A stretch of 64,000 nt of DNA from the NCBI RefSeq assembly GCF_009931435.1, contig NZ_CP043414.1. One strand, 5' to 3'. Source of the stretch: Escherichia coli. GTDB lineage: Bacteria; Pseudomonadota; Gammaproteobacteria; Enterobacterales; Enterobacteriaceae. The notes beneath the pieces were generated by a model. It searched no databases and was not told where the DNA came from. It was given only the letters and a program-made list of their open reading frames with translations. The position numbers were made by a program, and so were the translations under genes. How positions within the stretch are numbered: the stretch's first letter is position 1; each line of letters begins with the position of its first letter. This document shows positions 6,773-29,361 of the stretch, piece after piece.

Positions 6773-6805
6773 TGGGTACGTTTCCTTCTTGTTATTCGTA
6801 GAGGT

Positions 6806-7975: not shown

Positions 7976-7999
7976 GTTGTCCTCGTCATTGTTATCATT

Positions 8000-8115
8000 T
8001 GTAGGGTCGAGATTGTTGTCGGATGCGACGCTATGCGTCTTATCCGACCTACAGTTCAGTTCATCCCGTAGGCCTGATAAGCCGCGTCAGCGACGCATCA
8101 GGCATCGGTTGTCGG
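8000..8115. repeat. REP element between prpC and prpB
   Basis: GGATGCGACGCTATGCGTCTTATCCGACCTACAG ... GTAGGCCTGATAAGCCGCGTCAGCGACGCATCAGGCATCGG palindromic REP motifs. Confidence 0.7.
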
Positions 8116-8135
8116 ATACAACCAAAGGGCGTTTT

Positions 8136-9026: not shown

Positions 9027-9061
9027 AGCCCATCCTTTGTTATCAACTTGTTATTTGCGTT

Positions 9062-9079
9062 GATAAAGACAAAGCAAGG
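9062..9079 (-). promoter_or_regulatory. Candidate sigma-54 (-24/-12) promoter for prpBCDE
   Basis: The minus strand reads TGGCAT-ACCCC-TTGCT, ending about 35 nt upstream of the prpB ATG; consistent with the sigma-54-dependent activator PrpR encoded divergently. Confidence 0.55.
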
Positions 9080-9264
9080 GGTATGCCACAATTGCTTGAA
9101 TAAAATTAAATGTTTAATTTCAATTTGTTAGAGATAAAATCATGAAGTAATCCGCAAATATGCGTTTCAGTTAACGTTTCAGGCAATGTTTCTCTGCGTT
9201 TCATTGCAACAATTATGAAACAAGACTAAACCCAATATTCGGTTTCTTAACTTTGCGGTGCGCT

Positions 9265-10851
9265 ATGGCACATCCACCACGGCTGAATGACGACAAACCG
9301 GTTATCTGGACGGTATCTGTAACGCGGCTGTTCGAGCTATTTCGCGATATCAGTCTCGAGTTTGATCACCTGGCAAACATTACCCCTATCCAGCTTGGCT
9401 TTGAAAAAGCGGTGGCCTACATCCGCAAAAAACTGGCCAGCGAACGCTGCGACGCCATCATTGCCGCTGGCTCTAACGGCGCGTACCTGAAAAGCCGCCT
9501 GTCGGTACCGGTGATTCTGATAAAACCGAGTGGCTATGATGTGTTACAGGCACTAGCAAAAGCCGGAAAACTCACCTCTTCTATCGGCGTTGTCACCTAT
9601 CAGGAAACCATTCCGGCACTGGTAGCGTTTCAAAAAACCTTTAATTTGCGCCTCGACCAACGTAGCTACATTACCGAAGAAGACGCACGTGGGCAGATTA
9701 ACGAGCTAAAAGCCAACGGCACCGAAGCGGTGGTCGGCGCGGGGCTGATTACCGATCTGGCGGAAGAAGCCGGAATGACCGGAATTTTTATCTATTCTGC
9801 CGCCACCGTGCGCCAGGCATTTAGCGATGCGCTGGATATGACGCGCATGTCGTTACGCCATAATACTCACGATGCCACCCGCAACGCCCTGCGTACTCGT
9901 TACGTGCTGGGCGATATGCTCGGTCAATCACCACAGATGGAACAGGTACGGCAGACTATTTTGCTGTATGCCCGCTCCAGTGCGGCGGTGTTGATTGAAG
10001 GGGAAACGGGGACGGGCAAAGAGCTGGCGGCCCAGGCGATTCATCGGGAATATTTTGCCCGCCACGATGCGCGACAGGGCAAAAAGTCGCATCCTTTTGT
10101 TGCCGTCAACTGCGGGGCGATTGCTGAATCTCTGCTGGAAGCGGAGCTGTTTGGCTATGAGGAAGGAGCGTTTACCGGCTCGCGACGCGGAGGCCGCGCC
10201 GGGCTGTTTGAAATCGCCCACGGTGGCACGCTGTTTCTTGACGAGATAGGCGAAATGCCGCTGCCGTTGCAGACCCGGCTGCTGCGGGTGCTGGAAGAAA
10301 AAGAGGTCACCCGCGTCGGCGGGCATCAGCCTGTTCCGGTGGATGTGCGGGTTATTAGCGCCACTCACTGCAATCTCGAAGAGGATATGCAGCAAGGGCG
10401 TTTTCGCCGTGATCTGTTTTATCGACTGAGTATTTTGCGTCTGCAATTGCCGCCGCTACGCGAGCGGGCGGCGGATATTCTGCAGCTGGCGGAAAGCTTT
10501 TTGAAAGTGTCACTGGCGGCACTTACTGCGCCGTTTTCTTCCGCGTTACGTCAGGGATTACAGGCAAGTGAAACTGTGCTGTTGCGCTACAACTGGCCGG
10601 GAAATATTCGTGAACTGCGCAATATGATGGAACGACTGGCGCTATTTTTAAGTGTGGAACCGACGCCGGATTTAACGCCGCAATTTTTGCAGTTGCTACT
10701 GCCGGAACTGGCGCGCGAGTCGGCGGAAACTCCCGGTCCATGCTTACTGACGCCACAACAGGCACTGGAGAAATTTAATGGCGATAAAACAGCCGCGGCG
10801 AATTATTTAGGTATCAGCCGAACGACATTCTGGCGGCGGCTGAAAAACTGA
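9265..10851 (+). CDS. prpR: Sigma-54-dependent transcriptional activator of the prp operon
   Basis: AAA+ sigma-54 activator motifs ([14 protein letters not shown]) and a C-terminal HTH; start placed at MAHPP (5th codon of the 532-aa ORF) to give 528 aa. Confidence 0.9.
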
Positions 10852-10861
10852 AATGCCGAAT

Positions 10862-10935
10862 CCAGCGCGAACGCCTTATCCGGCATAAATTTCAATAGAT
10901 GATCACCGATAAACTTACGCATCGGGCATGTTTAC
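10862..10935. repeat. REP-like element downstream of prpR
   Basis: GCGAACGCCTTATCCGGCATAAA ... CGCATCGGGCA partial REP palindrome. Confidence 0.4.
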
Positions 10936-10948
10936 ATGGGGTGCAGAA

Positions 10949-11224
10949 TTATTTCTTCTTATAAATATTTGCCGTGCCGTGGATCTTATTGTCAGTTTGA
11001 CCAGAGGTCAGCACCAACACATCTGCCCCTTTTTCATCCGCTTTTTTGATCAGATCTTCTTTCGCATCTGCAGTCGACATTTCATTACTGGTTGAAATAT
11101 CACCTATTTTTTCATATTGCGATGCAACTTTTTCAAATTCTGCTTTGGTCATTAATTCTGCGGCATAAACGTTGGTAACGGCAAACGCTAACGCACCGAT
11201 TAACATTTTAGAGATTATTTTCAT
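10949..11224 (-). CDS. yahO: Small periplasmic protein (YahO-like, DUF1471 type)
   Basis: 91-aa ORF with signal peptide [21 protein letters not shown]; synteny next to prpR. Confidence 0.75.
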
Positions 11225-11408
11225 ATTACGGCTCCAGAGTTGTTATCAAACTATCACCCACCCATATTATTGGGTTGATTAATAATTAGTTCAGTCAGGG
11301 CATAAACGCCAGTAACCGGAAATAAGACACTTTGTGATCTCTCTCGCATCCGATTACTTTTTGTAGAAATATGATGAAGTTACTTCACTTATTTATGGAT
11401 GAAATCAC

Positions 11409-12041
11409 ATGGATCCCTTGCACGCCGTTTACCTGACCGTAGGACTGTTCGTGATGACTTTTTTTAATCCGGGAGCCAATCTTTTTGTGGTGGTACAAAC
11501 CAGCCTGGCTTCCGGTCGACGCGCAGGAGTGCTGACCGGGTTGGGCGTGGCACTGGGCGATGCGTTTTATTCCGGGTTGGGTTTGTATGGTCTTGCGACA
11601 CTCATTACGCAGTGTGAGGAGATTTTTTCGCTTATTAGAATCGTCGGCGGCGCTTATCTCTTATGGTTTGCGTGGTGCAGCATGCGCCGCCAGTCAACAC
11701 CGCAAATAAGCACACTACAACAACCGATTAGCGCCCCCTGGTATGTCTTTTTTCGCCGTGGATTAATTACCGATCTCTCTAATCCACAGACCGTTTTATT
11801 TTTTATCAGTATTTTCTCAGTAACGTTAAATGCTGAAACACCAACTTGGGCACGTTTAATGGCCTGGGCGGGAATTGTGTTCGCATCAATTATCTGGCGA
11901 GTCTTTCTTAGTCAGGCGTTTTCTTTGCCCGCTGTGCGTCGTGCTTATGGGCGTATGCAACGCGTTGCCAGTCGGGTTATTGGTGCAATTATTGGTGTAT
12001 TCGCGCTACGCCTGATTTACGAAGGAGTAACGCAGCGGTGA
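11409..12041 (+). CDS. yahN: LysE/RhtB-family amino-acid exporter-like membrane protein
   Basis: 210-aa hydrophobic ORF; synteny. Start uncertain: an in-frame TGA lies immediately upstream of the ATG, and a short ORF in another frame precedes it. Confidence 0.65.
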   Translation: MDPLHAVYLTVGLFVMTFFNPGANLFVVVQTSLASGRRAGVLTGLGVALGDAFYSGLGLYGLATLITQCEEIFSLIRIVGGAYLLWFAWCSMRRQSTPQISTLQQPISAPWYVFFRRGLITDLSNPQTVLFFISIFSVTLNAETPTWARLMAWAGIVFASIIWRVFLSQAFSLPAVRRAYGRMQRVASRVIGAIIGVFALRLIYEGVTQR

Positions 12042-14864: not shown

Positions 14865-15851
14865 TTAAACCACCCGATCCAGCCCCAACATGCCGCGAGC
14901 CTGAATGAAACAGAGCAGCAACGTTCCCCATAAGGCCATCGTCAGGTAGGGGCTTATCCCGAGAATATTGAAGCCGCTTTCAATAATTTGCAGAAGAAAC
15001 AGCGCCAGCACCATACCAATTATCCGCCCGCTGCCGCCGTCCGGATTAACCCCGCCGAGTACTGCCGCGAGGATTGACACCAGCAAGTACGATTCGCCAT
15101 AAGAGGCCTTAGCCGAGTTGAGTTTCGACATCATCAAAAATGCCGCTACCGCACAAAGCAAGGCGGAAATGACATACACCCATATCAGCACCCGACGCGT
15201 GTTAATACCGGAGTAAAGTGTTGCTCGTTCGTTAGAACCAATCAGATAAATGGATTTACCGAGCGGCGTTTTCTCCAGCAATATCCACAGCCCCAGCGCC
15301 ACTGCGGTAAACAACCACATCGGTAGCGGAATACCGAACCACTGTGCATGATTCAACCACAGCACCCATGAGGGATAATTGGCAATGGCGCTACCGCCTG
15401 TCACCAGAATATTTACCCCTTTGAGCAACGTCATCATCCCAAGCGTTGCAAGAATTGGCGACACTCGAATACCGGCAATCAATACGCCATTACATAAACC
15501 AATTATCACCGCCGCACCAGCGCCCGCCAGCAGCGTAGCGACAACCGTAGTAATACCCGGCGGATACTGAGTCGCCACCCACGCCATCACCAGTGAACAG
15601 GCGTTAGCGGTAGCAATAATTGACAAGTTAATGCCGCCACAAAGCATGGTCACCGCCATAGCCAACGCCAGAATGCCCAGCACGGGCATTTGCGAAGCGA
15701 CAGACTGGAAGTTACTTATCGACCAGAAAATCTCCGGCATAGTAATGCTGAACGCGGCAACAGTTAGCACCAGCAGGCCGATCAAATAAAACTCAACGTT
15801 ATTACGCCACGATTTTTTCATAGCAGACTCCGGTTCTGATGCTGACTCCAC
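14865..15851 (-). CDS. ABC transporter permease (RbsC/LsrD-like)
   Basis: 328-aa polytopic membrane protein; overlaps the upstream permease gene; part of a 4-gene ABC operon. Confidence 0.8.
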   Translation of the reverse strand: MESASEPESAMKKSWRNNVEFYLIGLLVLTVAAFSITMPEIFWSISNFQSVASQMPVLGILALAMAVTMLCGGINLSIIATANACSLVMAWVATQYPPGITTVVATLLAGAGAAVIIGLCNGVLIAGIRVSPILATLGMMTLLKGVNILVTGGSAIANYPSWVLWLNHAQWFGIPLPMWLFTAVALGLWILLEKTPLGKSIYLIGSNERATLYSGINTRRVLIWVYVISALLCAVAAFLMMSKLNSAKASYGESYLLVSILAAVLGGVNPDGGSGRIIGMVLALFLLQIIESGFNILGISPYLTMALWGTLLLCFIQARGMLGLDRVV

Positions 15852-16789
15852 GCCGTGGCACTAATGCTGGCAACGATGATGATGCCTGTGATCAATGTTT
15901 GCCAGTAAGACGAGACTCCCAATAAATTTAGCCCGTTTTGCATCACTGCCAACAACACCACGCCGAGCAAAGTACCGGTTAACGTGCCGCGCCCGCCGAG
16001 CAAACTAGTGCCGCCAAGCACCACCGCAGCCAGTACTGTCAGCTCATAACCCAGAAGAGAATCGGGGGCGACAGTCATCACCGTCCACGACTGCACTACA
16101 CCCGCAGCACCAGACATCAATCCCATATAGCCGTAAACGAAAAGTTGCAGTTTCAGCACGCTAAAGCCGATGCGACTGGCTGATTCACGGTTCCCGCCAA
16201 GGGCATAAATTTTGCGCCCTACACTGGTGAAATTCATGATAAACGCTGTCAGCAGCACCACCGTAATCATGGCGATCAGCGGCAGACCAAGGCCATAGTC
16301 ATAGCCGTCAACATCGGTGTACTTGAACAACATTACCCCCTGCTCAAACCACGGCGGAAAGTCGTACAGCCACACACCTTTACTCAACCATAACAGCAGG
16401 CCATAGAAAATATTCAGCGTCGAAATGGTGATGATGATAGAAGGCACCCGTAGGCGATTAACCAGTAAGGCGTTTATTAAGCCAAGTAAAATGCCGATGC
16501 CGCCCGCCAGGGCAAACGCGACAGCAAAGTTGCCACCCATTTTTTGTAGCAACAGCACCATGCCGTATTGCGCAATGATGGTCATTGCTGGAAACGAAAT
16601 ATCAATTCCACCGGAAATTAACACCACAAACAAACCACAGGCGAGAATAGTCAACATGGCATAGTTATTGGCGAGATCGTACAAATTACCGAATGTCAGA
16701 AACTCGTCGCTGCGCCAGGCAAGGCCAACAAACAGCACTATAATCAGTAATGCCAGCCAGAATTCATGACGTTTTTTCAGTTCAGCCAT
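15818..16789 (-). CDS. ABC transporter permease (RbsC/LsrC-like)
   Basis: 323-aa polytopic membrane protein; overlaps the ATPase gene by 8 nt. Confidence 0.8.
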   Translation of the reverse strand: MAELKKRHEFWLALLIIVLFVGLAWRSDEFLTFGNLYDLANNYAMLTILACGLFVVLISGGIDISFPAMTIIAQYGMVLLLQKMGGNFAVAFALAGGIGILLGLINALLVNRLRVPSIIITISTLNIFYGLLLWLSKGVWLYDFPPWFEQGVMLFKYTDVDGYDYGLGLPLIAMITVVLLTAFIMNFTSVGRKIYALGGNRESASRIGFSVLKLQLFVYGYMGLMSGAAGVVQSWTVMTVAPDSLLGYELTVLAAVVLGGTSLLGGRGTLTGTLLGVVLLAVMQNGLNLLGVSSYWQTLITGIIIVASISATAWSQHQNRSLL

Positions 16790-18281
16790 TTACCACCTCC
16801 GCAATCCTGGCCTGAGAACTGCTGTCAGGCAGGAAGCTATGGGTGATCTGACCTTTTTGCATTACCAAAATCCGGTGGCTTTGATACCACGCTTCTTCAA
16901 TTTCATCGCAGATCATCAATACCGCAATGCCATGAGCCGCCAGATCGCTGATAATGCCGTATATTCCTGCTTTGTTGGCGATATCAACACCGACAGTCGG
17001 GCTATCGAGAATCAACAGTCGTGGCCCAATCGCCAGCCATTTGGCGATCGATACTCGCTGCGCGTTACCCCCGGAAAGCGTATTCACCGGGAGATGTGGG
17101 TCAGAGACTTTGATGGTCAATGCCTTAATTAGCCTGTCCACCAGGTCACGCACTTTAGCTTCACTCAGAAAGCCGAAGCGATCTTTTACCTTGTGAAAAA
17201 CAGTGCTAATGATGTTGTCTTCAATAGATTGCGCCATCACCAAACCGCGCGACATGCGATCTTCCGAAACATAACCAATACCGTGGCGGATGGCGTCCTG
17301 GTTACTATGCAGTGTAACCGGCTGACCGTTGATGAGGATCTCACCAGCATCCGGTCGGGTCATACCAAACAGACTCAGACATAATTCCGTGCGCCCCGCA
17401 CCAAGCAGGCCAACAATCGACACCACTTCGCCCGCTTCCACCCGCAAGTTAATATTTTGATATTCCCCATGACGACTTAAATTACGCACCTCCAGCACTG
17501 GGGTGCTGGATTTTCCCTGCCACAACTCTCGCACCTGATATTCAAACTCCTGGCCGGTCATCAGGAAACCGAGTTGTTTTGTGGTCATCTCTGCAGCCGG
17601 AAAGGTCCCGACCAGCTCACCATCTTTCAACACTGAAATACGGTCGGAAACTTCCATCACCTCTTCCAGACGATGACTGACGAAGACCACGCAGATCCCG
17701 CGTTCCCGCAATTGATGCACCACCTGTAATAACCCTTGCACTTCCTGATGGGTCAGCGAAGCGGTTGGTTCATCCATCACGATCAACCGTGCGTCCTGCG
17801 CCAGTGCACGGCAAATTGCCACCAGCTGACAGCGGGCAATTGAAAGCTCAGAAACGAGCGTATCCAGTGGCAATGTGACGTTAATACTGGTCATTGCCGC
17901 CTGCGCCACCTCACGCAGACGACGTCGGTTAACAAACAGTCCGTGGTGATAGTGATTCACGGCGATATTCTCCCAGACACTCAGGTTAGGAAATAAAGAG
18001 AGGTCCTGATAAATCACCTGAATCCCCTGCGCCACCGAAGCGGCGGGTGTCAGCTTTGACCAGTTTTTCCCACCAAGCGTAATTTCCGCCCCCTCATCCG
18101 GGCGATAAACACCGGACATAATTTTAATCAACGTCGATTTACCACAGCCGTTTTGCCCGGCAAGGCAGTGCACCTCACCCGACATAAAGTCGAGAGAAAC
18201 ATCGCGCAGCGCTCGCGTGGCATGAAACGTTTTGTTGATATGACGAAGGGAAAGGAAGGTTTCCATAGCATCCCCTGGCAA
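16782..18281 (-). CDS. ABC transporter ATP-binding protein, fused double cassette (RbsA/LsrA-like)
   Basis: 499 aa with two Walker A motifs (GQNGCGKST and GLLGAGRTE) and Walker B LIVMDEPTASL. Confidence 0.88.
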   Translation of the reverse strand: MPGDAMETFLSLRHINKTFHATRALRDVSLDFMSGEVHCLAGQNGCGKSTLIKIMSGVYRPDEGAEITLGGKNWSKLTPAASVAQGIQVIYQDLSLFPNLSVWENIAVNHYHHGLFVNRRRLREVAQAAMTSINVTLPLDTLVSELSIARCQLVAICRALAQDARLIVMDEPTASLTHQEVQGLLQVVHQLRERGICVVFVSHRLEEVMEVSDRISVLKDGELVGTFPAAEMTTKQLGFLMTGQEFEYQVRELWQGKSSTPVLEVRNLSRHGEYQNINLRVEAGEVVSIVGLLGAGRTELCLSLFGMTRPDAGEILINGQPVTLHSNQDAIRHGIGYVSEDRMSRGLVMAQSIEDNIISTVFHKVKDRFGFLSEAKVRDLVDRLIKALTIKVSDPHLPVNTLSGGNAQRVSIAKWLAIGPRLLILDSPTVGVDIANKAGIYGIISDLAAHGIAVLMICDEIEEAWYQSHRILVMQKGQITHSFLPDSSSQARIAEVVNG

Positions 18282-18314
18282 TAAGAATCGGGGCTTTCGC
18301 CCCGAAGAAATGGA

Positions 18315-19301
18315 TTAATAAAGTGAGTCAATATTGTCTTTGTTGACCAGTAATACCTTATGGAAACGGATAATTCGCTTATCCATATCTACGTCGGCCT
18401 TACCGAGATTCTCCATTTCTAATCCAGGTTTGATCTCTTCACCCTTCAGCAACGTGCTGGCGACGGCCGCGAGTGCGTAACCTGCAGAGGCCGGATCGTA
18501 AGTAATCCCTTCGGTGATATCACCACTTTTAATCAGTGATGCCGCCTGTGAAGGGATCATCATGCCATAGACTGCGACTTTATTTTTCGCCCGTTTCTCT
18601 TTCACTGCACGTCCCGCGCCAATCGGACCGTTTGAACCAAAGGAGACAACCGCTTTCAAGTCAGGATAGGTTTTCATGAGGTCCAGTGTGGTACGACGTG
18701 AGTCATCCACACTCTCGGCAACCGGCATGCGGCGGGTAACTTCATGCATATCCGGGTAATGCTCTTTCTGGTATTTCACCAGCAAGTCAGCCCATAAGTT
18801 ATGCTGCGGCACGGTCAAACTACCCACGTAAATCACATAGCCGCCCTTGCCACCCATGCGTTTCGCCATATGTTCAACATATTCAGCGGCAAATTTTTCG
18901 TTATCAATGATTTCGATATCCCAGTTAGCACTTGGCTGACCGGGGGATTCGTTGGTCAGAACCACAATTCCGGCATCTCGCGCTTTTTTGAATACCGGTT
19001 CCAGCACGTTGGCATCGTTTGGCACGATAGTAATTGCGTTAACCTTACGAGCGATTAAATCCTCAATAATTTTAACCTGTTGAGGAGCATCAGTACTTGA
19101 AGGTCCCACCTGTGACGCATTAACACCAAAGGCTTTACCTGCCTCGACCACACCTTCGCCCATGCGATTAAACCACGGCATACCATCGACTTTAGAGATA
19201 TTCACCACGACTTTTTCCGCTGCCTGGAGCGGCGAGGAAATTAGCGCAGCGCCTAATAACAGCGAAGACACCATATTGATAACAAAACGTTTATTCATCA
19301 T
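18315..19301 (-). CDS. Periplasmic substrate-binding protein of the ribose/AI-2 (LsrB-like) class
   Basis: 328 aa with signal peptide MMNKRFVINMVSSLLLGAALISSPLQA; the C-terminal ...VLLVNKDNIDSLY resembles the LsrB C-terminus as recalled. Confidence 0.8.
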   Translation of the reverse strand: MMNKRFVINMVSSLLLGAALISSPLQAAEKVVVNISKVDGMPWFNRMGEGVVEAGKAFGVNASQVGPSSTDAPQQVKIIEDLIARKVNAITIVPNDANVLEPVFKKARDAGIVVLTNESPGQPSANWDIEIIDNEKFAAEYVEHMAKRMGGKGGYVIYVGSLTVPQHNLWADLLVKYQKEHYPDMHEVTRRMPVAESVDDSRRTTLDLMKTYPDLKAVVSFGSNGPIGAGRAVKEKRAKNKVAVYGMMIPSQAASLIKSGDITEGITYDPASAGYALAAVASTLLKGEEIKPGLEMENLGKADVDMDKRIIRFHKVLLVNKDNIDSLY

Positions 19302-19551
19302 TTCAGCCTCATTGCAGGGTAGTCAGGAAGTGTTCGCCCAAATTAGCGCGCTGGAGAGAATAAGAATTTTCGAATATTTTTATGCAGAATAAACAGCCCT
19401 ATTTCAGGCAGCTATTAAAAATTTGGTTATAAATATGGACAAAATGGGCAGCAACAATAAGTGTGACATTCATCACGTAAAAAATAGTAAAACAAACACA
19501 ATTAACGATATTTTATGTTTGTGAGTTTATTTCATGCGGATAGAGAGTTAT

Positions 19552-19962
19552 CTACACAACTTCAATGAGGGCATATTCTTCAAAAATAACGTCCATTTCG
19601 GGTGAATAGCTTCCCTCTGCCTGGAAAAAACGACGGTGTTCATTGCGCCAATATTCAAGACTAAGATCACCTTCACCTTCCTTGCGGGCAATCTCTTCGG
19701 TGACATCAGAAAAGCGCAGTAAATGCAGGCCAATCACTCTGATAACACATACAGGCTCACCACGGCTATTTTCTACAATCTTATACTCGCCAATCATCGG
19801 AAATGCGTTGTCTTCAATACATCCTGCCAGCGAACCACAGGAAGCAGTTTTAACACCAGTTGCAATCAACGTTGCGAGGTAATCGGCCAACGCTGCTGAA
19901 TCGCCAAAACTACAAAAGGAAGCATGGGGATATTTTTGTGAGATTTTTTCTTTTATGGTCAT
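19552..19962 (-). CDS. Small cytoplasmic protein, possibly ASCH-domain
   Basis: 136 aa when started at MTIKEK (11th codon of the 146-aa ORF); family assignment is from pattern recall only. Confidence 0.5.
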   Translation of the reverse strand: MTIKEKISQKYPHASFCSFGDSAALADYLATLIATGVKTASCGSLAGCIEDNAFPMIGEYKIVENSRGEPVCVIRVIGLHLLRFSDVTEEIARKEGEGDLSLEYWRNEHRRFFQAEGSYSPEMDVIFEEYALIEVV

Positions 19963-20260
19963 GGCAATATTTTCGCGATAACAGAACAACAAATTACATC
20001 TTAATTACTGTCGATAACTATCAGCAAGAGGATCATTGGTTTTTCTATGTTTAATCTTTTTTATCCGAAGCAGGTCACATTTATGGCTTGATAAATACCT
20101 TTGTTAAAACTCACTTTTGTGTATTTCTCTCAAATAATCCCCTGGAAATTATGCCGGGAGATTATAAAGTTCAGGATCATTCATTAACAAACCATTCCCG
20201 CCCCACTCCCTGGGGCTTAAATCTCTTACTATTCACCGTTGCAGGCGTTTCAAATTCGTA

Positions 20261-21643
20261 TCAACCTGCCACACTCCCCCACACCAGTTGCCCTTTATGG
20301 AACGTCGCCGTTCTCGGCGAGATACGCGCCACCGCCTCGGCAGAACAGGAGGCGTCCACCAGCACAAAGCTGGCGTCATCCTGCGCTTTTGGCCACACAC
20401 GCTCGCCTTTTTCATTTAGCGGCAACACATCGCCAGTGGCTAAAAACAGCGAGCGGGATAAATTCTGTTCGTTAGGACGAATATAGAGCTGCGCATACAG
20501 ATTGGCTTTTTCCAGCATGTCGCCCAGGCCGTAAGGCGACCAGTGGTCGATAACGCTGTCGGTGCCGGTCATCACTTTTACACCTTTGTCATGTAGCTGT
20601 TTGAGCGGCATATGCAACGTGCCAATCGGCACCGTCGAGGCGATAGAAATTTGCTGCGCCGCCATCCGGTGCGCCAACTCATCGACCTGTTGCTCGTTGA
20701 GCGTTGCCAGCGCAAAGGCGTGACTGATGGTCAGCTTGCCCTTCAGCTGCGGCGTTTTCTCTACCGTTTCAACCATATAATTGATGGCTGCCACGCCCGC
20801 CGGAGTGGTTTCGTGCAGATGAATATCGACGCCTTTGTCGTAGTCCAGCGCAATCTGGAACATGGTGTCGAGGGATTTTTCCATCGCGCCATCAACACTG
20901 GTCGGGTCCAGCCCGCCGACGTAATGCGCGCCTGCCTGCATTGCTTCACGCATCAAGGGTTCCGATTTCGACAGCAGCAAACCGTGCTGCGGGAAGGCGA
21001 CGATTTCACACTCGAAGCCCGCCTGACGTCGCGCCAGCACCGCCTGCAAATTTTGCAGATTTTTCAGGCCGGAAACCGGTTCGATATTGCAGTGGCTGCG
21101 GGCAATGGTGGTGCCTTTCGACTGCAATAAATCGATCAGTTTTTCTGCCCGCTCCTGAGTGTACGGTTGTAACTCCGGCAGCATTTTCTGCTCGAGTTTG
21201 ATCATGTCCTGGATGGTGGTGCCTGCCGGGCGATTGAGCGAGCGCCACGGTCCGCCGTAAAAGGTTTTGTCGAGATGAATATGCATGTCGCGAGTAGTGG
21301 GCAGCATCAGCTTACCGCCAGCGTCATATTGCGGCAGCGTGGCGTCCGGATGCTGCTTGTTCTCATGTAGCACAACAATTTTACCGTCCTGAATCTCCAC
21401 GGTCTGGCGCGCCGTGCGGGTCTGCACCGCCACACCGTTTTCGTAGTCAAAACCGGTTTCCAGCAGCACGTTATCAAGATAGTAATGCGGGTCAGTGATT
21501 TTCATGGTGTTATTCGCGTCGCAGTGGGTTGTGCCAGAGACCTCCGCATGGGCGAATGGCACAGAGGTACCAAACAGCGCGGCGGCGGTGACCATCTTAC
21601 CGCTCTGGCTCAGAAATTCACGGCGGCTATTGTTTTTTTTCAT
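20261..21643 (-). CDS. yahJ: Metal-dependent amidohydrolase/deaminase with twin-arginine (Tat) signal peptide (YahJ-like)
   Basis: 460 aa; N-terminus MKKNNSRREFLSQSGKMVTAAALFGTSVPFAHA carries the S-R-R-x-F-L Tat motif; HIHLD and DIHLHET metal-binding motifs as in the CodA/AtzC family. Confidence 0.82.
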   Translation of the reverse strand: MKKNNSRREFLSQSGKMVTAAALFGTSVPFAHAEVSGTTHCDANNTMKITDPHYYLDNVLLETGFDYENGVAVQTRTARQTVEIQDGKIVVLHENKQHPDATLPQYDAGGKLMLPTTRDMHIHLDKTFYGGPWRSLNRPAGTTIQDMIKLEQKMLPELQPYTQERAEKLIDLLQSKGTTIARSHCNIEPVSGLKNLQNLQAVLARRQAGFECEIVAFPQHGLLLSKSEPLMREAMQAGAHYVGGLDPTSVDGAMEKSLDTMFQIALDYDKGVDIHLHETTPAGVAAINYMVETVEKTPQLKGKLTISHAFALATLNEQQVDELAHRMAAQQISIASTVPIGTLHMPLKQLHDKGVKVMTGTDSVIDHWSPYGLGDMLEKANLYAQLYIRPNEQNLSRSLFLATGDVLPLNEKGERVWPKAQDDASFVLVDASCSAEAVARISPRTATFHKGQLVWGSVAG

Positions 21644-21652
21644 CTTACGTCC

Positions 21653-22603
21653 TTACGTTTTAATAATATGGGTGCCCGTTTCGCCACGCAGCGCCGCGGG
21701 CAGGCATTCCGGCGTGGTGATAATCACTTCTTTACCGCCCTGTTCCAGGAACGTCAGGCTGGCGATGATTTTTGGCAACATGCTGCCTGGCGGGAAATGC
21801 CCTTCCTGCATATAGCGGGTCATGGTGGCAATATCCACCCGATCCAGCGCCTGCTGCTGCGGTTTGCCAAAATGAATACACACTTTTTCGACGCCAGTGG
21901 TGATCACCAGAATGTCGGCGTGAATTTCACGGGCCAATAGCGCGGTAGAGAGATCTTTGTCGATAACCGCGTCCACGCTTTGGTAATCCCCCGCTTCACT
22001 GCACACCACCGGAATTCCACCGCCGCCCGCGCCAATTACCACAAAGCCTTGTTGGATCAGCGCCTTAATGGCAGGTGCTTCGACAATACGTTTCGGTTCC
22101 GGCGAGGCGACCACGCGGCGATAGCCGCGTCCGGCATCTTCAACAAAACGCCAGTCAGGGTTTGCCTTTTGTAATTCGTTACGCTGGCTTTCACTGAAGA
22201 ATGCGCCAATGGGCTTGGTGGGGTGAGCAAATCCCGGATCGTTTTTATCCACTTCCACCTGAGTCACCACGGTGACGGCTTTTTTCTCGCCGTGGCGCGC
22301 CAGCCGATTGTTCAGCGCCTGTTGGATCAAGTAGCCAATGCCGCCTTGCGTATCCGCCACACAGTTCGCCAGCGGCGTTAAGGGCAGCCCTTCGCGCTCG
22401 TGGGCAATCTCCGCACGGCGTAGATCCAGCCCAACCTGCGGCCCGTTGCCGTGGGTCAGCACAATGTCGTAATCGGAAGCCAGCATTTCCAGCACCGTAT
22501 CGGCGACGGCCTTCACCGCCTCCGCCTGATGCTCAATCGACTGGCTGGCGTTATCTTTGATAATGCTGTTGCCACCAATGGCAACGACCACAAGTTCTTT
22601 CAT
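21653..22603 (-). CDS. yahI: Carbamate kinase family protein (YahI-like)
   Basis: 316 aa; N-terminus MKELVVVAIGGNSI typical of the amino-acid-kinase/carbamate-kinase fold. Confidence 0.82.
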   Translation of the reverse strand: MKELVVVAIGGNSIIKDNASQSIEHQAEAVKAVADTVLEMLASDYDIVLTHGNGPQVGLDLRRAEIAHEREGLPLTPLANCVADTQGGIGYLIQQALNNRLARHGEKKAVTVVTQVEVDKNDPGFAHPTKPIGAFFSESQRNELQKANPDWRFVEDAGRGYRRVVASPEPKRIVEAPAIKALIQQGFVVIGAGGGGIPVVCSEAGDYQSVDAVIDKDLSTALLAREIHADILVITTGVEKVCIHFGKPQQQALDRVDIATMTRYMQEGHFPPGSMLPKIIASLTFLEQGGKEVIITTPECLPAALRGETGTHIIKT

Positions 22604-22609
22604 GTTGTT

Positions 22610-23105
22610 ATGTCCGCTACAGAGGGTGATGGGGTTATGACCAACGCCAGACAGCCTGATGCGCTACGCTTATCAGGCCTACAGATTCTTGTGCCATTCG
22701 TAGGCCGGATAAGGCGTCCACGCCGCATCCGGCAATGGTGACAAATGCCTGATGCGCTACGCTTATCAGGCCTACAGATTCTCGCGCCACTCGTAGGCCG
22801 GATAAGGCGTTCACGCCACAACCGGCAATGGTGACAAATGCCTGATGCGCTACGCTTATCAGGCCTACAGATTCTTGTGCCATTCGTAGGCCGGATAAGG
22901 CGTCCACGCCGCATCCGGCAATCGTGACAAATGCCTGATGCGCTACGCTTATCAGGCCTACAGATTCTTGCGCCACTCGTAGGCCGGATAAGGCGTTCAC
23001 GCCGCATCCGGCAATGGTGACAAATGCCTGATGCGCTACGCTTATCAGGCCTACAGATTCTCGCGCCACTCGTAGGCCGGATAAGGCGTTCACGCCACAT
23101 CCGGC
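22610..23105. repeat. BIME/REP array, five tandem units with a period of about 92-95 bp
   Basis: GCCTGATGCGCTACGCTTATCAGGCCTACAGATTCT...GTAGGCCGGATAAGGCG...GCATCCGGCAATGGTGACAAAT repeats starting near 22652, 22747, 22840, 22933 and 23025. Confidence 0.85.
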
Positions 23106-23118
23106 ATGAACATGTCAG

Positions 23119-24537
23119 TCAGACGCCGTAACGTTCGCACCAGCCAAGAATGGCTTTCTCGAAGCAGGCGAATGGTGGATGCACAATGCCCGCGCCAATC
23201 ATGCCGACGCCTGCATCTTTATGGGCAATGGCGGTGTTGATCACCGGCAGAATGCCACTGCTACCCACGCGGGTGATGTCGATTGCCGTCGGCACACCCA
23301 TAAAACCGAGCAGCGGAATGGTCACGTTGGGGTTTTCGCCGAGAGTGATTTCGCACATCTGACGGGAGAAATCGATAGCCTCTTCCACCGTACCGCCCAC
23401 CAGCGCGACGATTGCAGGCGCGGTCGCCATAGCAAATCCACCAATGCCGTAGGTTTCGGTGATGGCGCTGTCGCCAATATCCAGCCCCGAATCTTCCGGC
23501 TTATAACCGGCAAACATCGGGCCGATGACCTGTTGCGCCGGGCCGGTAAACCACTGCCCCGGCAGGCCGCTGACTCGCAGGCCGAACTCGACACCATTAC
23601 GCGCCATCGTGGTCACCACGGTGCTGTATTCGATGCCGTGCGCCGCATCCATCGCCGCTTTACACATCGCCATCCACGTCGGGCCGGAGAAGTAGTCGCT
23701 GCTGGCGACAAACTCAAACACTTCGCGCTGTTGCTCGACGGAATAACCCGCCTGAATAATCCCCGGCGTCAGCGCCTGAATCAGCAGCGTCGTCCCGGCG
23801 TTATTGCGGTTATGGCATTCATCGCCCATATGCAGCGCCTGCGCCAGCATCAAGCGCAGATCAATCTCACCGAGAATTTTCATCGCGTCACGCAGCATTG
23901 GCCCCTGCACATCGCGCATCCAGTTGAGGCGGTCAATCACGCTCTGATCGTTGGCACCCATACGCAAAATCTTCGCCATCTGCTCGCTCATATTGGTGTA
24001 AGCGATGTTGCCGAAGGTTTTGTTTTTCACGATGTGCATAAACATCGAGGCAGAGGTAACACCCGCCATCGAACCCACGCAGTCATGCTCGTGGCACGGC
24101 GAGAAAGTGATCTCCCCGGAAGCCGCCAGTTCAGCCGCCTCGTCAAGATCTTTCGCCAGCCCTTCGAACACCAGCGCCCCGGTGACCGCGCCTTTCATCG
24201 CGCCGCACATTTTTTCCCAGGTCACTGGCGGCCCGGCGTGAAGAATGGTTTTCACCGTCATGCCTGGCACCACGTTAATCGCCTGATCAAAACCAATCAG
24301 CACCGGATGCGACTGGATAATGCGTTCCAGCGCCTGCTGGTTAGCGGCGGCGATTTTGTCTGCCAGCGGCGAATCGGCAATGTTGTCCAGTGCCTGCACC
24401 ACCTGCATATTGCCCTGCCCCGGCGGCGTCCAGTCGAGTTGGGTTACTTCTACATGCTGCTTTTTCAGATCATCGCTAAACATAGCGATGCCGACATTAA
24501 TAACGTTCAACGGTTGGCTAAACAGTGACTGGCTCAT
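23119..24537 (-). CDS. yahG: DUF1116-family protein (YahG-like; paralogue of YlbE)
   Basis: Start placed at MSQSLF (8th codon of the 479-aa ORF), giving a TGATG stop/start overlap with yahF. Confidence 0.75.
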   Translation of the reverse strand: MSQSLFSQPLNVINVGIAMFSDDLKKQHVEVTQLDWTPPGQGNMQVVQALDNIADSPLADKIAAANQQALERIIQSHPVLIGFDQAINVVPGMTVKTILHAGPPVTWEKMCGAMKGAVTGALVFEGLAKDLDEAAELAASGEITFSPCHEHDCVGSMAGVTSASMFMHIVKNKTFGNIAYTNMSEQMAKILRMGANDQSVIDRLNWMRDVQGPMLRDAMKILGEIDLRLMLAQALHMGDECHNRNNAGTTLLIQALTPGIIQAGYSVEQQREVFEFVASSDYFSGPTWMAMCKAAMDAAHGIEYSTVVTTMARNGVEFGLRVSGLPGQWFTGPAQQVIGPMFAGYKPEDSGLDIGDSAITETYGIGGFAMATAPAIVALVGGTVEEAIDFSRQMCEITLGENPNVTIPLLGFMGVPTAIDITRVGSSGILPVINTAIAHKDAGVGMIGAGIVHPPFACFEKAILGWCERYGV

Positions 24538-26084
24538 CAGGCTTCCTCCCCTTTGCAAATAAATTCACGCGCCAGCAATCCGGTATTGGTGCTGCTGCTG
24601 GCCAGAATCACCCCGGCATCAAGCAGCATCTGGCTTTGTTGTGCTAACGATGGCGTATCGAGATCGGTACCCAGCACATAGGCGAGAATGATCAACTCGC
24701 GGCCTTCGGCGGCAGCGATCGCTTTCGCTTCTTTGATCGCCTCGATGGTGGAACCGACCGGATCTTCATGCGATCCAAATCCGAGCACAAAATCCATCAC
24801 GATCACCGCCACTTCTGGATCGCGCGCTTCTTCGATCAACCGGCTGATGCGGTTGGTGGGGTCAATCATTGGATGCGGCTTGCCGTTGGTGAAGTCGTCA
24901 TCGCCAAAGTCGAGGAAGGTGTGTTTGATGCTGCGGTTGATATCTTGCAGGCGGAATTCCGGATCGGGCTGAATGTTGCTGTAGACATCGCCATGTTTTT
25001 CCATCACCGCGAACATGGTTTCGTCACACAGCGTACCGCCGCAGAACAGTCCTCGAATGTATTTCTGCTGCGGTTGCAGGCGAGCGCGCACGTCAGCAAT
25101 CAACGGCTGGTTCAGCGTATGCAGCTCGAGATGTTCCTGTTTCACGCCGGAGAGCATCACCGCTTTCAATGCCGCCTCTTTACTGCCGCGGGCAAACTGT
25201 AGCCCCTGCTCATCCACTGGTGTTTCGCCACGGCCGAGGAAGCAGACCACCACCGGCTTGCGGCAGGCGCGTGCGCGTTCCAGCACTTTGCGGGCCACCG
25301 CAGGCGCAGGCGGTTTGGAGATAAGTACAATGATTTCAGTTTGCGGATCGTTTTCCAGCATCCCGATGGCGTCGAGCATCATCAGGCCGCCGATTTTCTC
25401 GCTCAGGTCGCGCCCGCCGGTGCCAATCAGTTGCGAAATGCCGCCACCAAATTCATGAATGCGGACGCTCAGCTCCTGGCTACCGGTGCCGGATGCGCCA
25501 ACAATACCGATGTTGCCGCGACGCACAGCGTTACCAAAGCAGAGCGCCGCGCCGTTGATAATCGCCGTGCCGCAGTCTGGCCCCATCATCAGCAGCCCTT
25601 TTTCGTGGGCCAGTTGCTTGAGCGCCAGTTCATCTTCAACTGAGACATTATCGGAAAACAGCATCACGTTAAGATCGTTTTGCAGCGCCTGACGTGCTTC
25701 GCGAGCGGCAAACAGACCGTTGACCGAAATCACTGCCAGGTTATTTTCCGGGATATGCTTTTTGGCGCTGGCAATCGTGGCATAACGCGCCTCGTGCGAG
25801 CCGCTTTGCGCTTTGCTGTTGAACAGTTCTTCAATCTCCACCAGCAACTGCTCGTTGTCTGCGCCCGCTTTGCCGTTGATGACAATCATCAGGTCGCCGT
25901 TTTTCGCCTGCTCCAGCTCCGGCGTCAGCAGCCCTAAATTCTTCAGCACGCCTTTGTTCATTTCTGTCGCCATCGCCACAAATGCCTGCTCGACGCCGTC
26001 GAGTTTATTTGCACGCGTGGAGATAGACATCAGCGAGACAGAATCAAAATAGGTATTCGGTTTAATGACTATTTTAACTGACAT
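24537..26084 (-). CDS. yahF: FdrA-like protein, CoA-binding/succinyl-CoA-synthetase-like fold (YahF-like)
   Basis: 515 aa with glycine-rich nucleotide/CoA-binding segments (GIVGASGTG, LFCGGTL); overlaps yahE and yahG. Confidence 0.8.
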   Translation of the reverse strand: MSVKIVIKPNTYFDSVSLMSISTRANKLDGVEQAFVAMATEMNKGVLKNLGLLTPELEQAKNGDLMIVINGKAGADNEQLLVEIEELFNSKAQSGSHEARYATIASAKKHIPENNLAVISVNGLFAAREARQALQNDLNVMLFSDNVSVEDELALKQLAHEKGLLMMGPDCGTAIINGAALCFGNAVRRGNIGIVGASGTGSQELSVRIHEFGGGISQLIGTGGRDLSEKIGGLMMLDAIGMLENDPQTEIIVLISKPPAPAVARKVLERARACRKPVVVCFLGRGETPVDEQGLQFARGSKEAALKAVMLSGVKQEHLELHTLNQPLIADVRARLQPQQKYIRGLFCGGTLCDETMFAVMEKHGDVYSNIQPDPEFRLQDINRSIKHTFLDFGDDDFTNGKPHPMIDPTNRISRLIEEARDPEVAVIVMDFVLGFGSHEDPVGSTIEAIKEAKAIAAAEGRELIILAYVLGTDLDTPSLAQQSQMLLDAGVILASSSTNTGLLAREFICKGEEA

Positions 26085-26937
26085 AATTCCCTCCGTAGGT
26101 TTGGCTCAGCGCACAACCATCGGCCATGCCATACAGCATGTCGCAGCCGGAACTGGAGCCAATATGTTTAATTTTTTCTATTGCCTGAGTTGCGTTCCCA
26201 GGTATGTCATAAATAATGTTATGAATAAAACGATGAATATTTTCCCGGCAGCGTTGTTGTAATGCGGCTTCCAGCGTTATGGCACTTAATAACGTGGTAT
26301 TATTTCTGCCGTGTTGCAGACCGAGATAAAATTCCTCTTTGTATTTTTCCGCCGGATGCCCAGGAACAAATAAAATAAGCGCCAGACCTGTTAAATAATC
26401 GTCGGCTGATGGCGTAAGGCCAATCCCTAACCCCATCATACTGACGACCGCTGAGGCGATATTTTGTTTATCGTTTACGGCCTGAATAACTGCCCGTCGT
26501 TTAATATGTAATTCTTTATTTAACGCCTGATAAAACGGATTATCGCCGCGATAATTAAACAGGGTTTCATTTTCCCCCAGGTGCTGATGAATAATGTCGT
26601 GCCACTGTTGCCAGGCGATAAGGTGAAAATTTTCAGCGGTCATTTGCAAAGCTGGGGACAGCCAACGCTGGCAATGACTCATCTCTATATGAAGATGTTG
26701 ACCAACCGTAATACCTTGATCATCAAACTGAACCTTATCACCATGACGGAACAGACCATCAAAGTGAGTGAGTGCCAACCGACAACTGTTTGGCGCATTG
26801 TCGTACTCTTCACAAAGCAGCGTTAGCAACTGCTGGCGAACCGGGAGTGCGATATTTACCGCTCTGGCAAAGACCTGTTCAACCTGTCCTTGCCCCCGCT
26901 GTACCAGAAAATCTGCATCCGCAGTTAGCGCCCACAC
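26074..26937 (-). CDS. yahE: DUF2877-family protein (YahE-like; paralogue of YlbF)
   Basis: 287-aa ORF overlapping the yahF start by 11 nt; synteny. Confidence 0.7.
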   Translation of the reverse strand: MWALTADADFLVQRGQGQVEQVFARAVNIALPVRQQLLTLLCEEYDNAPNSCRLALTHFDGLFRHGDKVQFDDQGITVGQHLHIEMSHCQRWLSPALQMTAENFHLIAWQQWHDIIHQHLGENETLFNYRGDNPFYQALNKELHIKRRAVIQAVNDKQNIASAVVSMMGLGIGLTPSADDYLTGLALILFVPGHPAEKYKEEFYLGLQHGRNNTTLLSAITLEAALQQRCRENIHRFIHNIIYDIPGNATQAIEKIKHIGSSSGCDMLYGMADGCALSQTYGGNYVS

Positions 26938-26976: not shown

Positions 26977-27582
26977 TTATGCGCCTGCGGCAATCAGCAA
27001 CTGAGCAATCTCTTCAAAGCCCCGTTCCCGTGCCAGTTCCAGCGGCGTTTTACCATATTTATCCGTCATGTGCGGGCTGGCACCGTGTTCCAGCAATAAC
27101 TGGACAATCGCCTGCTGTTTTATCCCGCCATCATTAAGCACAATTGCTTCCAGTAGCGGCGTCCAGCCAACATGGTTGGTCTGGTTAACGTTAATCTCCG
27201 TATGCGCCAAAAGCTCTTTTACAATACTTAAATGGCCTTTTTCACAGGCAGGCGTCAGGCCGACACCGCCGAAACGGGTTACACAATTAAGGTCTGGTTT
27301 AGCCGGTAAAATAATCCGTAACAGGGTTAAATCGCCGGTCAGGCAGCTCATTAAAAAAGGATTTAAACAGGTCTGGTCTTGTTTATTAATATCCGCACCG
27401 GCATCAATTAACGCCTGAACGCAAGCATATTGCTGATATAAACTTGCCAGCGTAATTGCCGTTTTCCCCTGGCGATCGCAGGTATTAATATCGACACCCA
27501 GAGCAAGGCAGGCTTTTACTTTATCGATATCACCCTGTTGCGCAGCCAATAAATAGTCGGCAGGTAGATTTTTTATACTCAT
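26977..27582 (-). CDS. yahD: Ankyrin-repeat protein (YahD-like)
   Basis: Repeated ankyrin motifs (G-TPL--A...LL--GAD-N); start placed at MSIKNL. Confidence 0.8.
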   Translation of the reverse strand: MSIKNLPADYLLAAQQGDIDKVKACLALGVDINTCDRQGKTAITLASLYQQYACVQALIDAGADINKQDQTCLNPFLMSCLTGDLTLLRIILPAKPDLNCVTRFGGVGLTPACEKGHLSIVKELLAHTEINVNQTNHVGWTPLLEAIVLNDGGIKQQAIVQLLLEHGASPHMTDKYGKTPLELARERGFEEIAQLLIAAGA

Positions 27583-27839
27583 TAACATTCCCCTGGTTTT
27601 TGTGGCTGTTTTCGATGAATTGAGAATAGCAACGATAATCTGATAAAAGAACCCGCTTAAATTTAATTCGCCGTATTTCGCCTTTTTGTTGAATGATGTT
27701 CAACAATCTTTTCGCAGTGTGCGGTAGTGCAATATTTGTTTCTTTGACCCGATACCCTTCCACTCAATCAGGTTTTATTTCTCTATAGTCTGCACATGTA
27801 AGAGTAGCTTTCGTCCATGTCTAACCAGAGGGGAACAAG

Positions 27840-28428: not shown

Positions 28429-29361
28429 ATGAACTCAATTTTTACCGAAGAGAATCTGTTGGCATTTACTACCGCTGCGCGTTTTGGCAGCTTCAGTAAA
28501 GCCGCAGAAGAGTTGGGTTTAACCACTTCCGCCATTAGCTACACCATCAAGCGAATGGAAACAGGGCTGGATGTGGTGCTGTTCACTCGCAGTACCCGCA
28601 GCATTGAGTTAACGGAGTCCGGGCGTTATTTTTTCCGCAAAGCTACCGACCTGCTGAATGATTTTCACGCCATCAAACGCAGCATCGATACTATTTCGCA
28701 GGGCATAGAAGCGCGTGTGCGTATTTGTATTAATCAGCTGCTTTATACGCCCAAACACACCGCACGCTTATTACAGGTACTGAAAAAGCAGTTTCCAACC
28801 TGCCAGATTACCGTCACCACCGAAGTGTATAATGGCGTCTGGGATGCGATTATTAATAATCAGGCGAATATCGCTATCGGCGCACCCGACACGCTGCTGG
28901 ACGGCGGCGGCATTGATTACACGGAGATTGGCGCGATTCGCTGGGCTTTTGCTATCGCCCCGGATCACCCGTTAGCCTTTGTGCCGGAACCCATCGCCGA
29001 AAGCCAACTGCGTCTCTATCCTAATATCATGGTGGAAGACACCGCGCATACGATTAATAAAAAAGTGGGCTGGTTGCTGCATGGGCAGGAGTCGATTCTG
29101 GTGCCAGATTTCAACACCAAATGTCAGTGCCAGATTTTAGGCGAAGGAATTGGTTTTTTGCCGGATTACATGGTCCGCGAGGCGATGGCGCAAGCGCTAC
29201 TGGTTACCCGACAAATTCATAACCCGCGCCAGGATTCGCGCATGTTACTGGCAACTCAACACTCTGCCACCGGTCAAGTGACGCAGTGGATTAAAAAGCA
29301 GTTTGCGCCAAAGGGTATATTAACAGGGATCTATCAGGATTTACTGCATCGGGAGAATTGA
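28429..29361 (+). CDS. yahB: LysR-family transcriptional regulator (YahB-like)
   Basis: 310 aa with N-terminal HTH ...FGSFSKAAEELGLTTSAISYTIKRME... Confidence 0.85.
   Translation: MNSIFTEENLLAFTTAARFGSFSKAAEELGLTTSAISYTIKRMETGLDVVLFTRSTRSIELTESGRYFFRKATDLLNDFHAIKRSIDTISQGIEARVRICINQLLYTPKHTARLLQVLKKQFPTCQITVTTEVYNGVWDAIINNQANIAIGAPDTLLDGGGIDYTEIGAIRWAFAIAPDHPLAFVPEPIAESQLRLYPNIMVEDTAHTINKKVGWLLHGQESILVPDFNTKCQCQILGEGIGFLPDYMVREAMAQALLVTRQIHNPRQDSRMLLATQHSATGQVTQWIKKQFAPKGILTGIYQDLLHREN

Follow-up and report, generated by a model that had tools for sequence, protein, structure and literature searches.

We investigated the N-terminus of YahJ, an amidohydrolase encoded in a 64,000-nucleotide stretch of an Escherichia coli genome (contig NZ_CP043414.1 of assembly GCF_009931435.1; hereafter, the window), and found that it very probably carries a genuine, cleavable twin-arginine (Tat) signal at its true N-terminus; we hold the model of export and pathway described below, taken as a whole, to be equally probable, with the pathway as its weak part. 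The Tat signal is correct but already known. YahJ has stood on Tat lists for roughly two decades and its signal is a working tag, so the signal itself adds nothing new: b0324 yahJ is in a table of predicted E. coli Tat substrates based on Dilks et al. 2003 (PMC3027627), a TatP prediction of YahJ has been printed together with the K-12-type signal MKESNSRREFLSQSGKMVTAAALFGTSVPLAHA (PMC7549933), and the signal peptide (ssYahJ) is reported to serve as a validated periplasmic export tag (PMC6788121). Deletion of yahJ gave a competitive index of 0.70 in mice (p = 0.022; PMC7549933). A 2024 survey of the y-ome still counted YahJ as uncharacterised, and no localisation of native YahJ was found in the literature searched, which covered the reporter work of Tullman-Ercek 2007 and Fisher 2008 as cited in PMC6788121.

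Here, we discuss what the comparative picture adds, namely a narrower search for the substrate of YahJ: the enzyme would be extracytoplasmic, in most Enterobacterales it goes together with a permease of no assigned family, an AllFGH-like carbamoyltransferase and a carbamate kinase, and nucleobase-type transporters and regulators lie near yahJ homologues in distant relatives. The Escherichia operon is without this permease.

The signal peptide and the start codon

The features at the 5' end of yahJ, with the basis for each, are as follows.

20261..21643, minus strand: yahJ open reading frame, 460 aa, beginning MKKNNSRREFLSQSGKMVTAAALFGTSVPFAHA and then EVSG
21545..21643, minus strand: YahJ signal peptide, codons 1–33, MKKNNSRREFLSQSGKMVTAAALFGTSVPFAHA (sequence, conservation and literature: PMC3027627, PMC7549933, PMC6788121)
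21611..21628, minus strand: twin-arginine motif S6-R7-R8-E9-F10-L11 at the boundary of the n- and h-regions (conservation of the residues)
21554..21595, minus strand: h-region M17–F30, MVTAAALFGTSVPF, only moderately hydrophobic (Kyte-Doolittle)
21545..21553, minus strand: c-region A31-H32-A33, predicted signal peptidase I site with the cut before E34 (sequence)
21500..21544, minus strand: variable linker, residues 34–48, running from the cleavage site to the conserved HYYLDNV at the start of the fold (alignments)
21650..21655, minus strand: Shine-Dalgarno-like TAAGGA, 6 nt 5' of the yahJ ATG (sequence)

The first-pass annotation had described a Tat motif, a hydrophobic region and an AxA site at the YahJ N-terminus. 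The sequence matches that description exactly, and all three elements are conserved in orthologues. The range assigned to them, 21540..21643, does contain the signal as quoted, but it spills 5 nt into the mature part and was given with no strand. Six of the seven positions of the Tat consensus S/T-R-R-x-F-L-K are matched (S6-R7-R8-E9-F10-L11-S12, with S in place of the final K).

In an alignment of 26 homologues reaching down to 70% identity, R7, R8, F10 and A20 are invariant, and L11 and A33 are each at least 90% conserved. The RR motif, the hydrophobic stretch and the AxA-type site are likewise retained in 120 close homologues, among which residues 34–48 vary freely, with zero conserved columns. 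An orthologue scan limited to one genome per species yielded 80 loci of 53–98% identity, spanning Enterobacterales, Alphaproteobacteria, Halomonas, Shewanella and others. An in-frame RR motif was present in all 80 loci, 62 of which read S-R-R-x-F-[LI]; F at RR+2 was nearly always there, and 77 had the small-x-small site and with it the full three-part signal.

Most of the wider family is signal-less, and the NCBIfam model NF005312 begins at residue 49 of YahJ. Both facts would suit a start codon past the RR motif, which would leave YahJ in the cytoplasm like CodA and its relatives of about 400 aa. We give this reading practically no credence. The downstream candidates are not conserved, Met17 being GTA (Val) in Serratia and Met47 missing in Aeromonas, whereas a Shine-Dalgarno-like sequence precedes the same Met1 in four genera, including Serratia, Erwinia and Aeromonas. 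Codons 1–16 of the window and of Serratia differ at codon positions 1, 2 and 3 in 2, 0 and 9 cases, respectively, a pattern that indicates purifying selection in the yahJ frame; codon changes in the n-region and the RR motif are mostly silent. Together with the RR motif standing in frame at every orthologous locus, these observations place the start at Met1, and the downstream start that the first-pass annotation had named as grounds for abandoning its claim is not found. Additionally, the TAA of TAAGGA is the stop codon of yahI, which makes translational coupling of yahI and yahJ likely. Two antisense open reading frames, 21485..21940 and 21495..21815, had no family matches, and Rfam gave no family match at the signal region.

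The signal of K-12 YahJ (b0324), the product of the same gene in the same operon, is identical to that of the window at 30 of 33 positions, including the whole SRREFLSQSGKMVTAAALFGTSVP core. The window variant differs by E3K, S4N and L30F, plus E for A at +1, and all of these changes leave the RR motif untouched. With E3K and S4N, the net charge of the n-region is +3 (K2, K3, R7 and R8 against E9), compared with +1 in K-12, and the change in codon 3 produces an A8 run straight after the ATG.

Signal class and route of export

As judged from the sequence, the match of the YahJ N-terminus to a Tat signal is not a matter of chance. When all Met-started N-termini in the six frames of the window were compared, only one of 548, that of YahJ, combined the motif with an h-region and a small-x-small site. 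The available profile models missed it: a whole-protein scan of YahJ reported no Pfam Tat-signal model, and the curated Tat-signal model TIGR01409 aligned residues 6–27 at 14.0 bits, under its cutoff of 16.7, a narrow miss for a short model that surfaced only in a separate scan of the N-terminal 45 aa. We therefore took the 24 remaining E. coli Tat signals given in PMC7549933 and built from them a position-specific, RR-anchored matrix; because the anchoring is rough (with the HyaA segment aligned on the wrong RR), it was used for ranking only. At 15.8 bits, YahJ outscored all the other N-termini among the 548 (background mean −15.3, sd 6.5), and its score lies within the limits that known Tat signals reach when each is left out in turn (4.4–34.4). 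The N-terminus of CodA, which is encoded in the same window, scored −13.9 bits and has no signal, in agreement with the earlier description of CodA as cytoplasmic by contrast.

The physical character of the peptide is also that of a Tat signal, as it is long and weakly hydrophobic and ends in an AxA c-region; a Sec signal for signal peptidase I would be short (about 18–25 aa) with a strongly hydrophobic h-region, and the YahJ N-terminus is neither. Its peak Kyte-Doolittle value (best 10-residue window) is 1.63, compared with 1.86 ± 0.28 in 21 E. coli Tat signals and 2.63 ± 0.31 in 10 Sec controls, below whose range (1.92–3.08) it falls. Its length of 33 aa compares with 32.9 aa for Tat and 22 aa for Sec signals. 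An AF2 model of YahJ built with 26 close homologues was of low confidence (pLDDT 60.7, pTM 0.57) and was left out of fold searches; in this low-confidence model, residues 1–46 are unstructured save for a short helix at 7–12.

The first-pass annotation had also held that YahJ is exported through Tat. Published Tat-substrate lists and reporter export agree with this, but not with a strictly Tat-specific signal, since reporters show use of both Tat and Sec: a passage in PMC6788121, citing Tullman-Ercek 2007, groups ssYahJ with peptides that both pathways recognise. Native YahJ might then leave the cytoplasm unfolded through Sec on a working signal whose RR pair is tolerated rather than required. 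The c-region, which has no basic residue, and the acidic start of the mature protein (E34, D42) would accord with such a route, as would the sub-cutoff TIGR01409 score. We nevertheless regard it as improbable, because Sec targeting leaves unexplained why RR is kept at 80 of 80 loci with near-universal F at RR+2. The h-region is also far less hydrophobic, and the peptide far longer, than in Sec signals.

A homologue from Priestia likewise speaks for Tat rather than Sec as the native route. This protein (52% identity) has an SRRRFI signal, and immediately after its gene come tatA (99.4 bits, cutoff 62) and then tatC (193.7 bits, cutoff 132.7); a divergent uracil/xanthine permease gene precedes it, and the same neighbours occur on six other contigs. 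In Bacillus subtilis, phoD-tatAd-tatCd is a case of a Tat substrate gene beside its own dedicated translocase. The Priestia layout, substrate plus dedicated translocase, is the same, although the cargo there is an amidohydrolase and that of B. subtilis a phosphodiesterase. The tat genes of Escherichia, unlike the dedicated pair in Priestia, lie elsewhere in the genome and are common to all substrates. Furthermore, the gene of a Caulobacter homologue directly follows that of a TonB-dependent receptor. Read from sequence in this way, gene context supports an extracytoplasmic YahJ.

It is very improbable that the signal stays uncleaved and serves as an N-terminal anchor, tethering YahJ at the periplasmic face of the inner membrane, as is reported for the Tat-exported organophosphate hydrolase of Brevundimonas. 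Nothing specific favours an anchor, although the variable linker of about 15 residues after the signal would suit a tether. The small-x-small site in 77 of 80 orthologues and the conservation of A33 argue for cleavage, and an ssYahJ fusion gave a smaller band that is consistent with it (PMC6788121). A lipid anchor fits no better, as the cleavage region, F-A-H-A followed by E, lacks the lipobox cysteine at +1 that signal peptidase II would need; C41, the sole Cys nearby, is preceded by T-T-H and does not form a lipobox, L-[ASTVI]-[GAS]-C.

With a cleavable Tat signal, export would proceed as follows. The YahJ amidohydrolase of about 46 kDa would fold and take up its metal, probably one ion, in the cytoplasm; TatBC would recognise the S-R-R-E-F-L motif, and YahJ would pass the inner membrane via TatA. 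Signal peptidase I would then cleave after A31-H32-A33 and leave a soluble periplasmic enzyme.

The enzyme and its family

Beyond the linker, the remainder of the protein is a single catalytic domain.

20261..21499 including the stop codon, minus strand: catalytic domain of YahJ, amidohydrolase superfamily, cytosine deaminase/AtzC-like branch (NF005312, Pfam, PDB 6nbo and the alignment with CodA)

The amidohydrolase identity proposed at first pass is borne out. NF005312 (PRK06846) matched residues 49–459 at 714.7 bits, over its cutoff of 447, and Pfam returned Amidohydro_3 and Amidohydro_1. The closest solved relative is the AtzC-like PDB 6nbo (E = 4e-44), with cytosine deaminases farther off. 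BLASTP aligned YahJ with the CodA of the window at 26% identity (E = 5e-22), and H121-x-H123, H275, E278, H308 and D362 of YahJ fall on the metal and catalytic residues of CodA. H121, H123, H275 and D362 do not vary at identities as low as 30%, and E278 and H308 are likewise invariant or almost so. YahJ is hence predicted to possess the ligands (HxH on strand 1, His, His and Asp) and the catalytic Glu of this branch.

We also considered whether YahJ is a cytosine deaminase and rejected this, as every curated cutoff was missed: NF005759, NF006685 and NF005748 gave 69.9, 81.7 and 102.7 bits against cutoffs of 403, 483 and 438, respectively. YahJ should accordingly be called an amidohydrolase and not CodA-like. 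In the periplasm, it would hydrolyse or deaminate a small nitrogen compound, probably a nucleobase-like one.

CodA and AtzC have their fold in common with YahJ, but the CodA of the window and most of the relatives of about 400 aa have no signal peptide. An RR signal is borne by only about five of 81 full-length proteins, each representing a 50%-identity cluster; the Priestia and Caulobacter homologues are among the five, and one further representative has the variant S-R-K-G-F-L-K. The remaining representatives are about 400 aa long, lack a signal and begin at the catalytic domain, around residues 34–48 of YahJ. The prevalence of such signal-less members indicates that the N-terminal extension is a targeting add-on specific to the YahJ clade. 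Of the named full-length protein clusters, that of Escherichia albertii is the closest (97%).

The organophosphate hydrolase of Brevundimonas diminuta (OPH/PTE) is an enzyme of the amidohydrolase superfamily that is reported to be targeted by Tat, has a two-metal centre and stays membrane-associated. It resembles YahJ in joining a metal-dependent amidohydrolase fold to a twin-arginine signal. YahJ differs from this two-metal, membrane-associated enzyme in belonging to the cytosine deaminase/AtzC-like branch and in its conserved AxA cleavage site.

The yahDEFGIJ operon and proposed uptake of the product

yahJ closes the Escherichia yahDEFGIJ operon. E. coli chromosomes match 5.1 kb of the locus with identities reaching 97%, and yahG, yahI and yahJ are annotated there. 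The genes 5' of yahJ, and the divergent regulator beyond them, are as follows.

21653..22603, minus strand: yahI, carbamate kinase, directly 5' of yahJ (NF009007, 644.9 bits, cutoff 266; E. coli annotation)
23119..24558, minus strand: yahG, AllG-like (DUF1116) subunit (annotation; Pfam AllG on orthologues)
24537..26084, minus strand: yahF, FdrA/AllF-like subunit (NF004760, 490.6 bits, cutoff 433)
26074..26937, minus strand: yahE, AllH-like (DUF2877) subunit (annotation; Pfam AllH on orthologues)
26977..27588, minus strand: yahD, the gene that opens the operon, encoding an ankyrin-repeat protein that lacks a signal peptide (profile and neighbourhood data)
28429..29361, plus strand: yahB, divergent LysR-type regulator (best match AllS, NF007501, 268.6 bits, below the cutoff of 372)

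AllFGH is the oxamic transcarbamylase (PMC11326118), which acts with the carbamate kinase AllK in anaerobic allantoin degradation (PMC11326118, PMC9843812), and YahE, YahF, YahG and YahI form a paralogous set 5' of yahJ. The allantoin cluster is without a Tat-exported amidohydrolase, whereas the yah operon has YahJ. Neither of the two allantoin papers mentions the yah genes, and no ring-opening enzyme was evident in yahDEFGIJ.

Among the 69 loci with sufficient upstream flank, 32 have the full operon, five have only YahD and YahJ, and 32 have yahJ standing alone. The first catabolic step that the first-pass annotation assigned to YahJ is conjectural. The stand-alone loci, about half of all, have no linked cytoplasmic pathway; a LysR gene lies beside yahJ in 18 of the 32, mostly just upstream on the same strand. 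Farther afield, an RR-bearing homologue of 36% identity belongs to an operon of permease, ankyrin/TPR, AllH, AllF, AllG, carbamate kinase and YahJ, which adjoins a PucR-type regulator.

A YahD-like ankyrin protein thus accompanies yahJ at 37 of the 69 loci, and in several bacteria of distant relationship YahD homologues neighbour YahJ homologues that bear an RR signal. In Erwinia, yahD and yahJ form one module with an 8 nt overlap, and at L010, an alphaproteobacterial locus, the gene of a YahD homologue comes shortly after that of the YahJ homologue. A further locus (L008) has an ankyrin+TPR protein as the partner, and the divergent YahD homologue of another (L011) bears a Sec/lipoprotein-like leader of its own. 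We consider it unlikely, albeit worth stating, that YahD is a dedicated partner of YahJ outside the cytoplasm, hitchhiking across the membrane in proteobacteria while bound to the folded enzyme; if true, this would supply a reason why a simple metal hydrolase needs Tat. YahD could just as well be a cytoplasmic chaperone or have a function that does not concern export. The 32 stand-alone loci, where YahD is absent nearby, weaken the case for an obligatory partnership and lead us to set it aside.

Regarding uptake, the first-pass annotation had proposed that the product of YahJ might enter through the adjacent ABC importer, and this proposal did not survive. The ABC system (14865..19301) consists of rhamnose/AI-2/ribose-like components of the monosaccharide type (CUT2-like). 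An ASCH gene and two gaps, each of about 250 bp, lie between this system and yahJ. A search for transcription signals from yahJ to the neighbouring gene revealed no terminator and a single promoter-like site, below chance expectation. At a coverage of at least 80%, the system occurs in 2211 of 5426 E. coli genomes (41%), and its binding protein was found within 8 kb of yahJ in none of the 80 other species. We rejected the importer on this distribution and on its sugar-type family.

A more suitable candidate lies within the operon. In 26 of the 32 full operons, the gene of a polytopic membrane protein (about 515 aa) stands between yahG and yahI, and the identity of this protein is 70% even between Serratia and the distant locus L008. 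It had no match in Pfam, NCBIfam or the PDB, and BLASTP against a true NCS2 permease was not significant (E = 0.04). Judging by its conservation and position, this protein is the candidate importer of the operon. In the ancestral enterobacterial operon, it would import the product of YahJ, which would pass to the AllFGH-like carbamoyltransferase (YahEFG) and then to the carbamate kinase (YahI). Given operons with the permease on the one hand and stand-alone loci on the other, periplasmic conversion followed by uptake, the ABC importer excluded, is plausible for the enterobacterial operon and not as a general property of YahJ.

The Escherichia operon is without this permease. In its place, the window has a REP/BIME array in which a 93 bp unit is repeated 4.9 times, and the 166 aa open reading frame in this slot consists of translated repeats, in line with the description of yahH in the literature as "filled with REP23 sites".

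Signal peptide and gene neighbours of YahJ homologues

In the window, codon 3 of yahJ reads AAA (Lys), whereas the other Escherichia sequences examined have GAA (Glu). The AAA codon creates an A8 homopolymer immediately 3' of the ATG (21633..21640, ATGAAAAAAAAC), and the lysine raises the net charge of the n-region of the signal from +1 to +3. The twin-arginine signal was kept in the yahJ homologues of the 32 stand-alone loci (within L053-L091), from which all other yah genes were absent. Their hosts include Photorhabdus, Pantoea, Rahnella, Bosea, Paracoccus and Halomonas, among others, and a LysR gene adjoined yahJ in 18 of these loci, mostly on the same strand and immediately upstream.

Distant homologues had neighbours of several kinds:

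L005 (Priestia, Bacillaceae) 7374..11438, YahJ-homologue cassette
L009 (Caulobacter) 5672..10458, TonB-dependent outer-membrane receptor gene and twin-arginine-bearing YahJ homologue
L011 8135..8803, minus strand, YahD-like ankyrin gene
L010 10547..11116, YahD-like ankyrin gene
L003 9367..10008, YahD-like ankyrin gene

In Priestia, a divergent uracil/xanthine NCS2 permease gene borders the homologue, and tatA and tatC genes dedicated to it come next; the cassette thus holds a Tat substrate together with a private translocase. In Caulobacter, the receptor gene lies only 30 nt upstream of the homologue, which suggests that the substrate reaches the periplasm by receptor-mediated uptake. YahD-like ankyrin proteins adjoin YahJ homologues in distantly related bacteria (L011, L010 and L003): that of L011 carries an N-terminal Sec/lipoprotein-like leader (MKTLLLLSLMGLFPSC), and that of L010 is 40% identical to YahD, although it lacks a Pfam annotation. 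The YahD-like gene of Erwinia shares an 8-nt overlap with yahJ.

Operon divergence and a membrane protein of related operons

Between the Pseudocitrobacter loci (L013, L014) and the window, YahJ, YahF, YahG and YahI are 95-98% identical, whereas YahD (71%) and YahE (54-57%) are far more divergent. This uneven sequence divergence hints at a recombination boundary within the operon.

The slot between yahG and yahI holds a polytopic membrane protein of ~515 aa in 26 of the 32 complete operons, as in the following genes:

L002 7213..8763
L004 7300..8847
L008 (distant homologue locus) 1228..2763

It is absent from Escherichia, Pseudocitrobacter, Kluyvera and Raoultella/Klebsiella. The Serratia and L008 proteins are 70% identical to each other. 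No match was found in Pfam, NCBIfam or PDB, and the protein may belong to an undescribed permease family.

Variable and repetitive segments of the window

14865..19992, ~5.2 kb block between yahJ and yahK: sugar-type ABC importer and ASCH-domain gene
22654..23106, REP/BIME tandem array in the yahG-yahI gap, 4.9 copies of a 93 bp unit
22600..23100, minus strand, 166 aa ORF over the array ('yahH')

The importer/ASCH block is carried by 2211 of the 5426 E. coli genomes; where it is missing, the query matched at its ends only, and the block therefore behaves like a variable indel. We rejected 'yahH' as a real gene, the spurious ORF being merely the repeat array in translation. Four of the array's repeat copies matched Rfam naRNA4 (RF02564) on the plus strand, at 70-78 bits.
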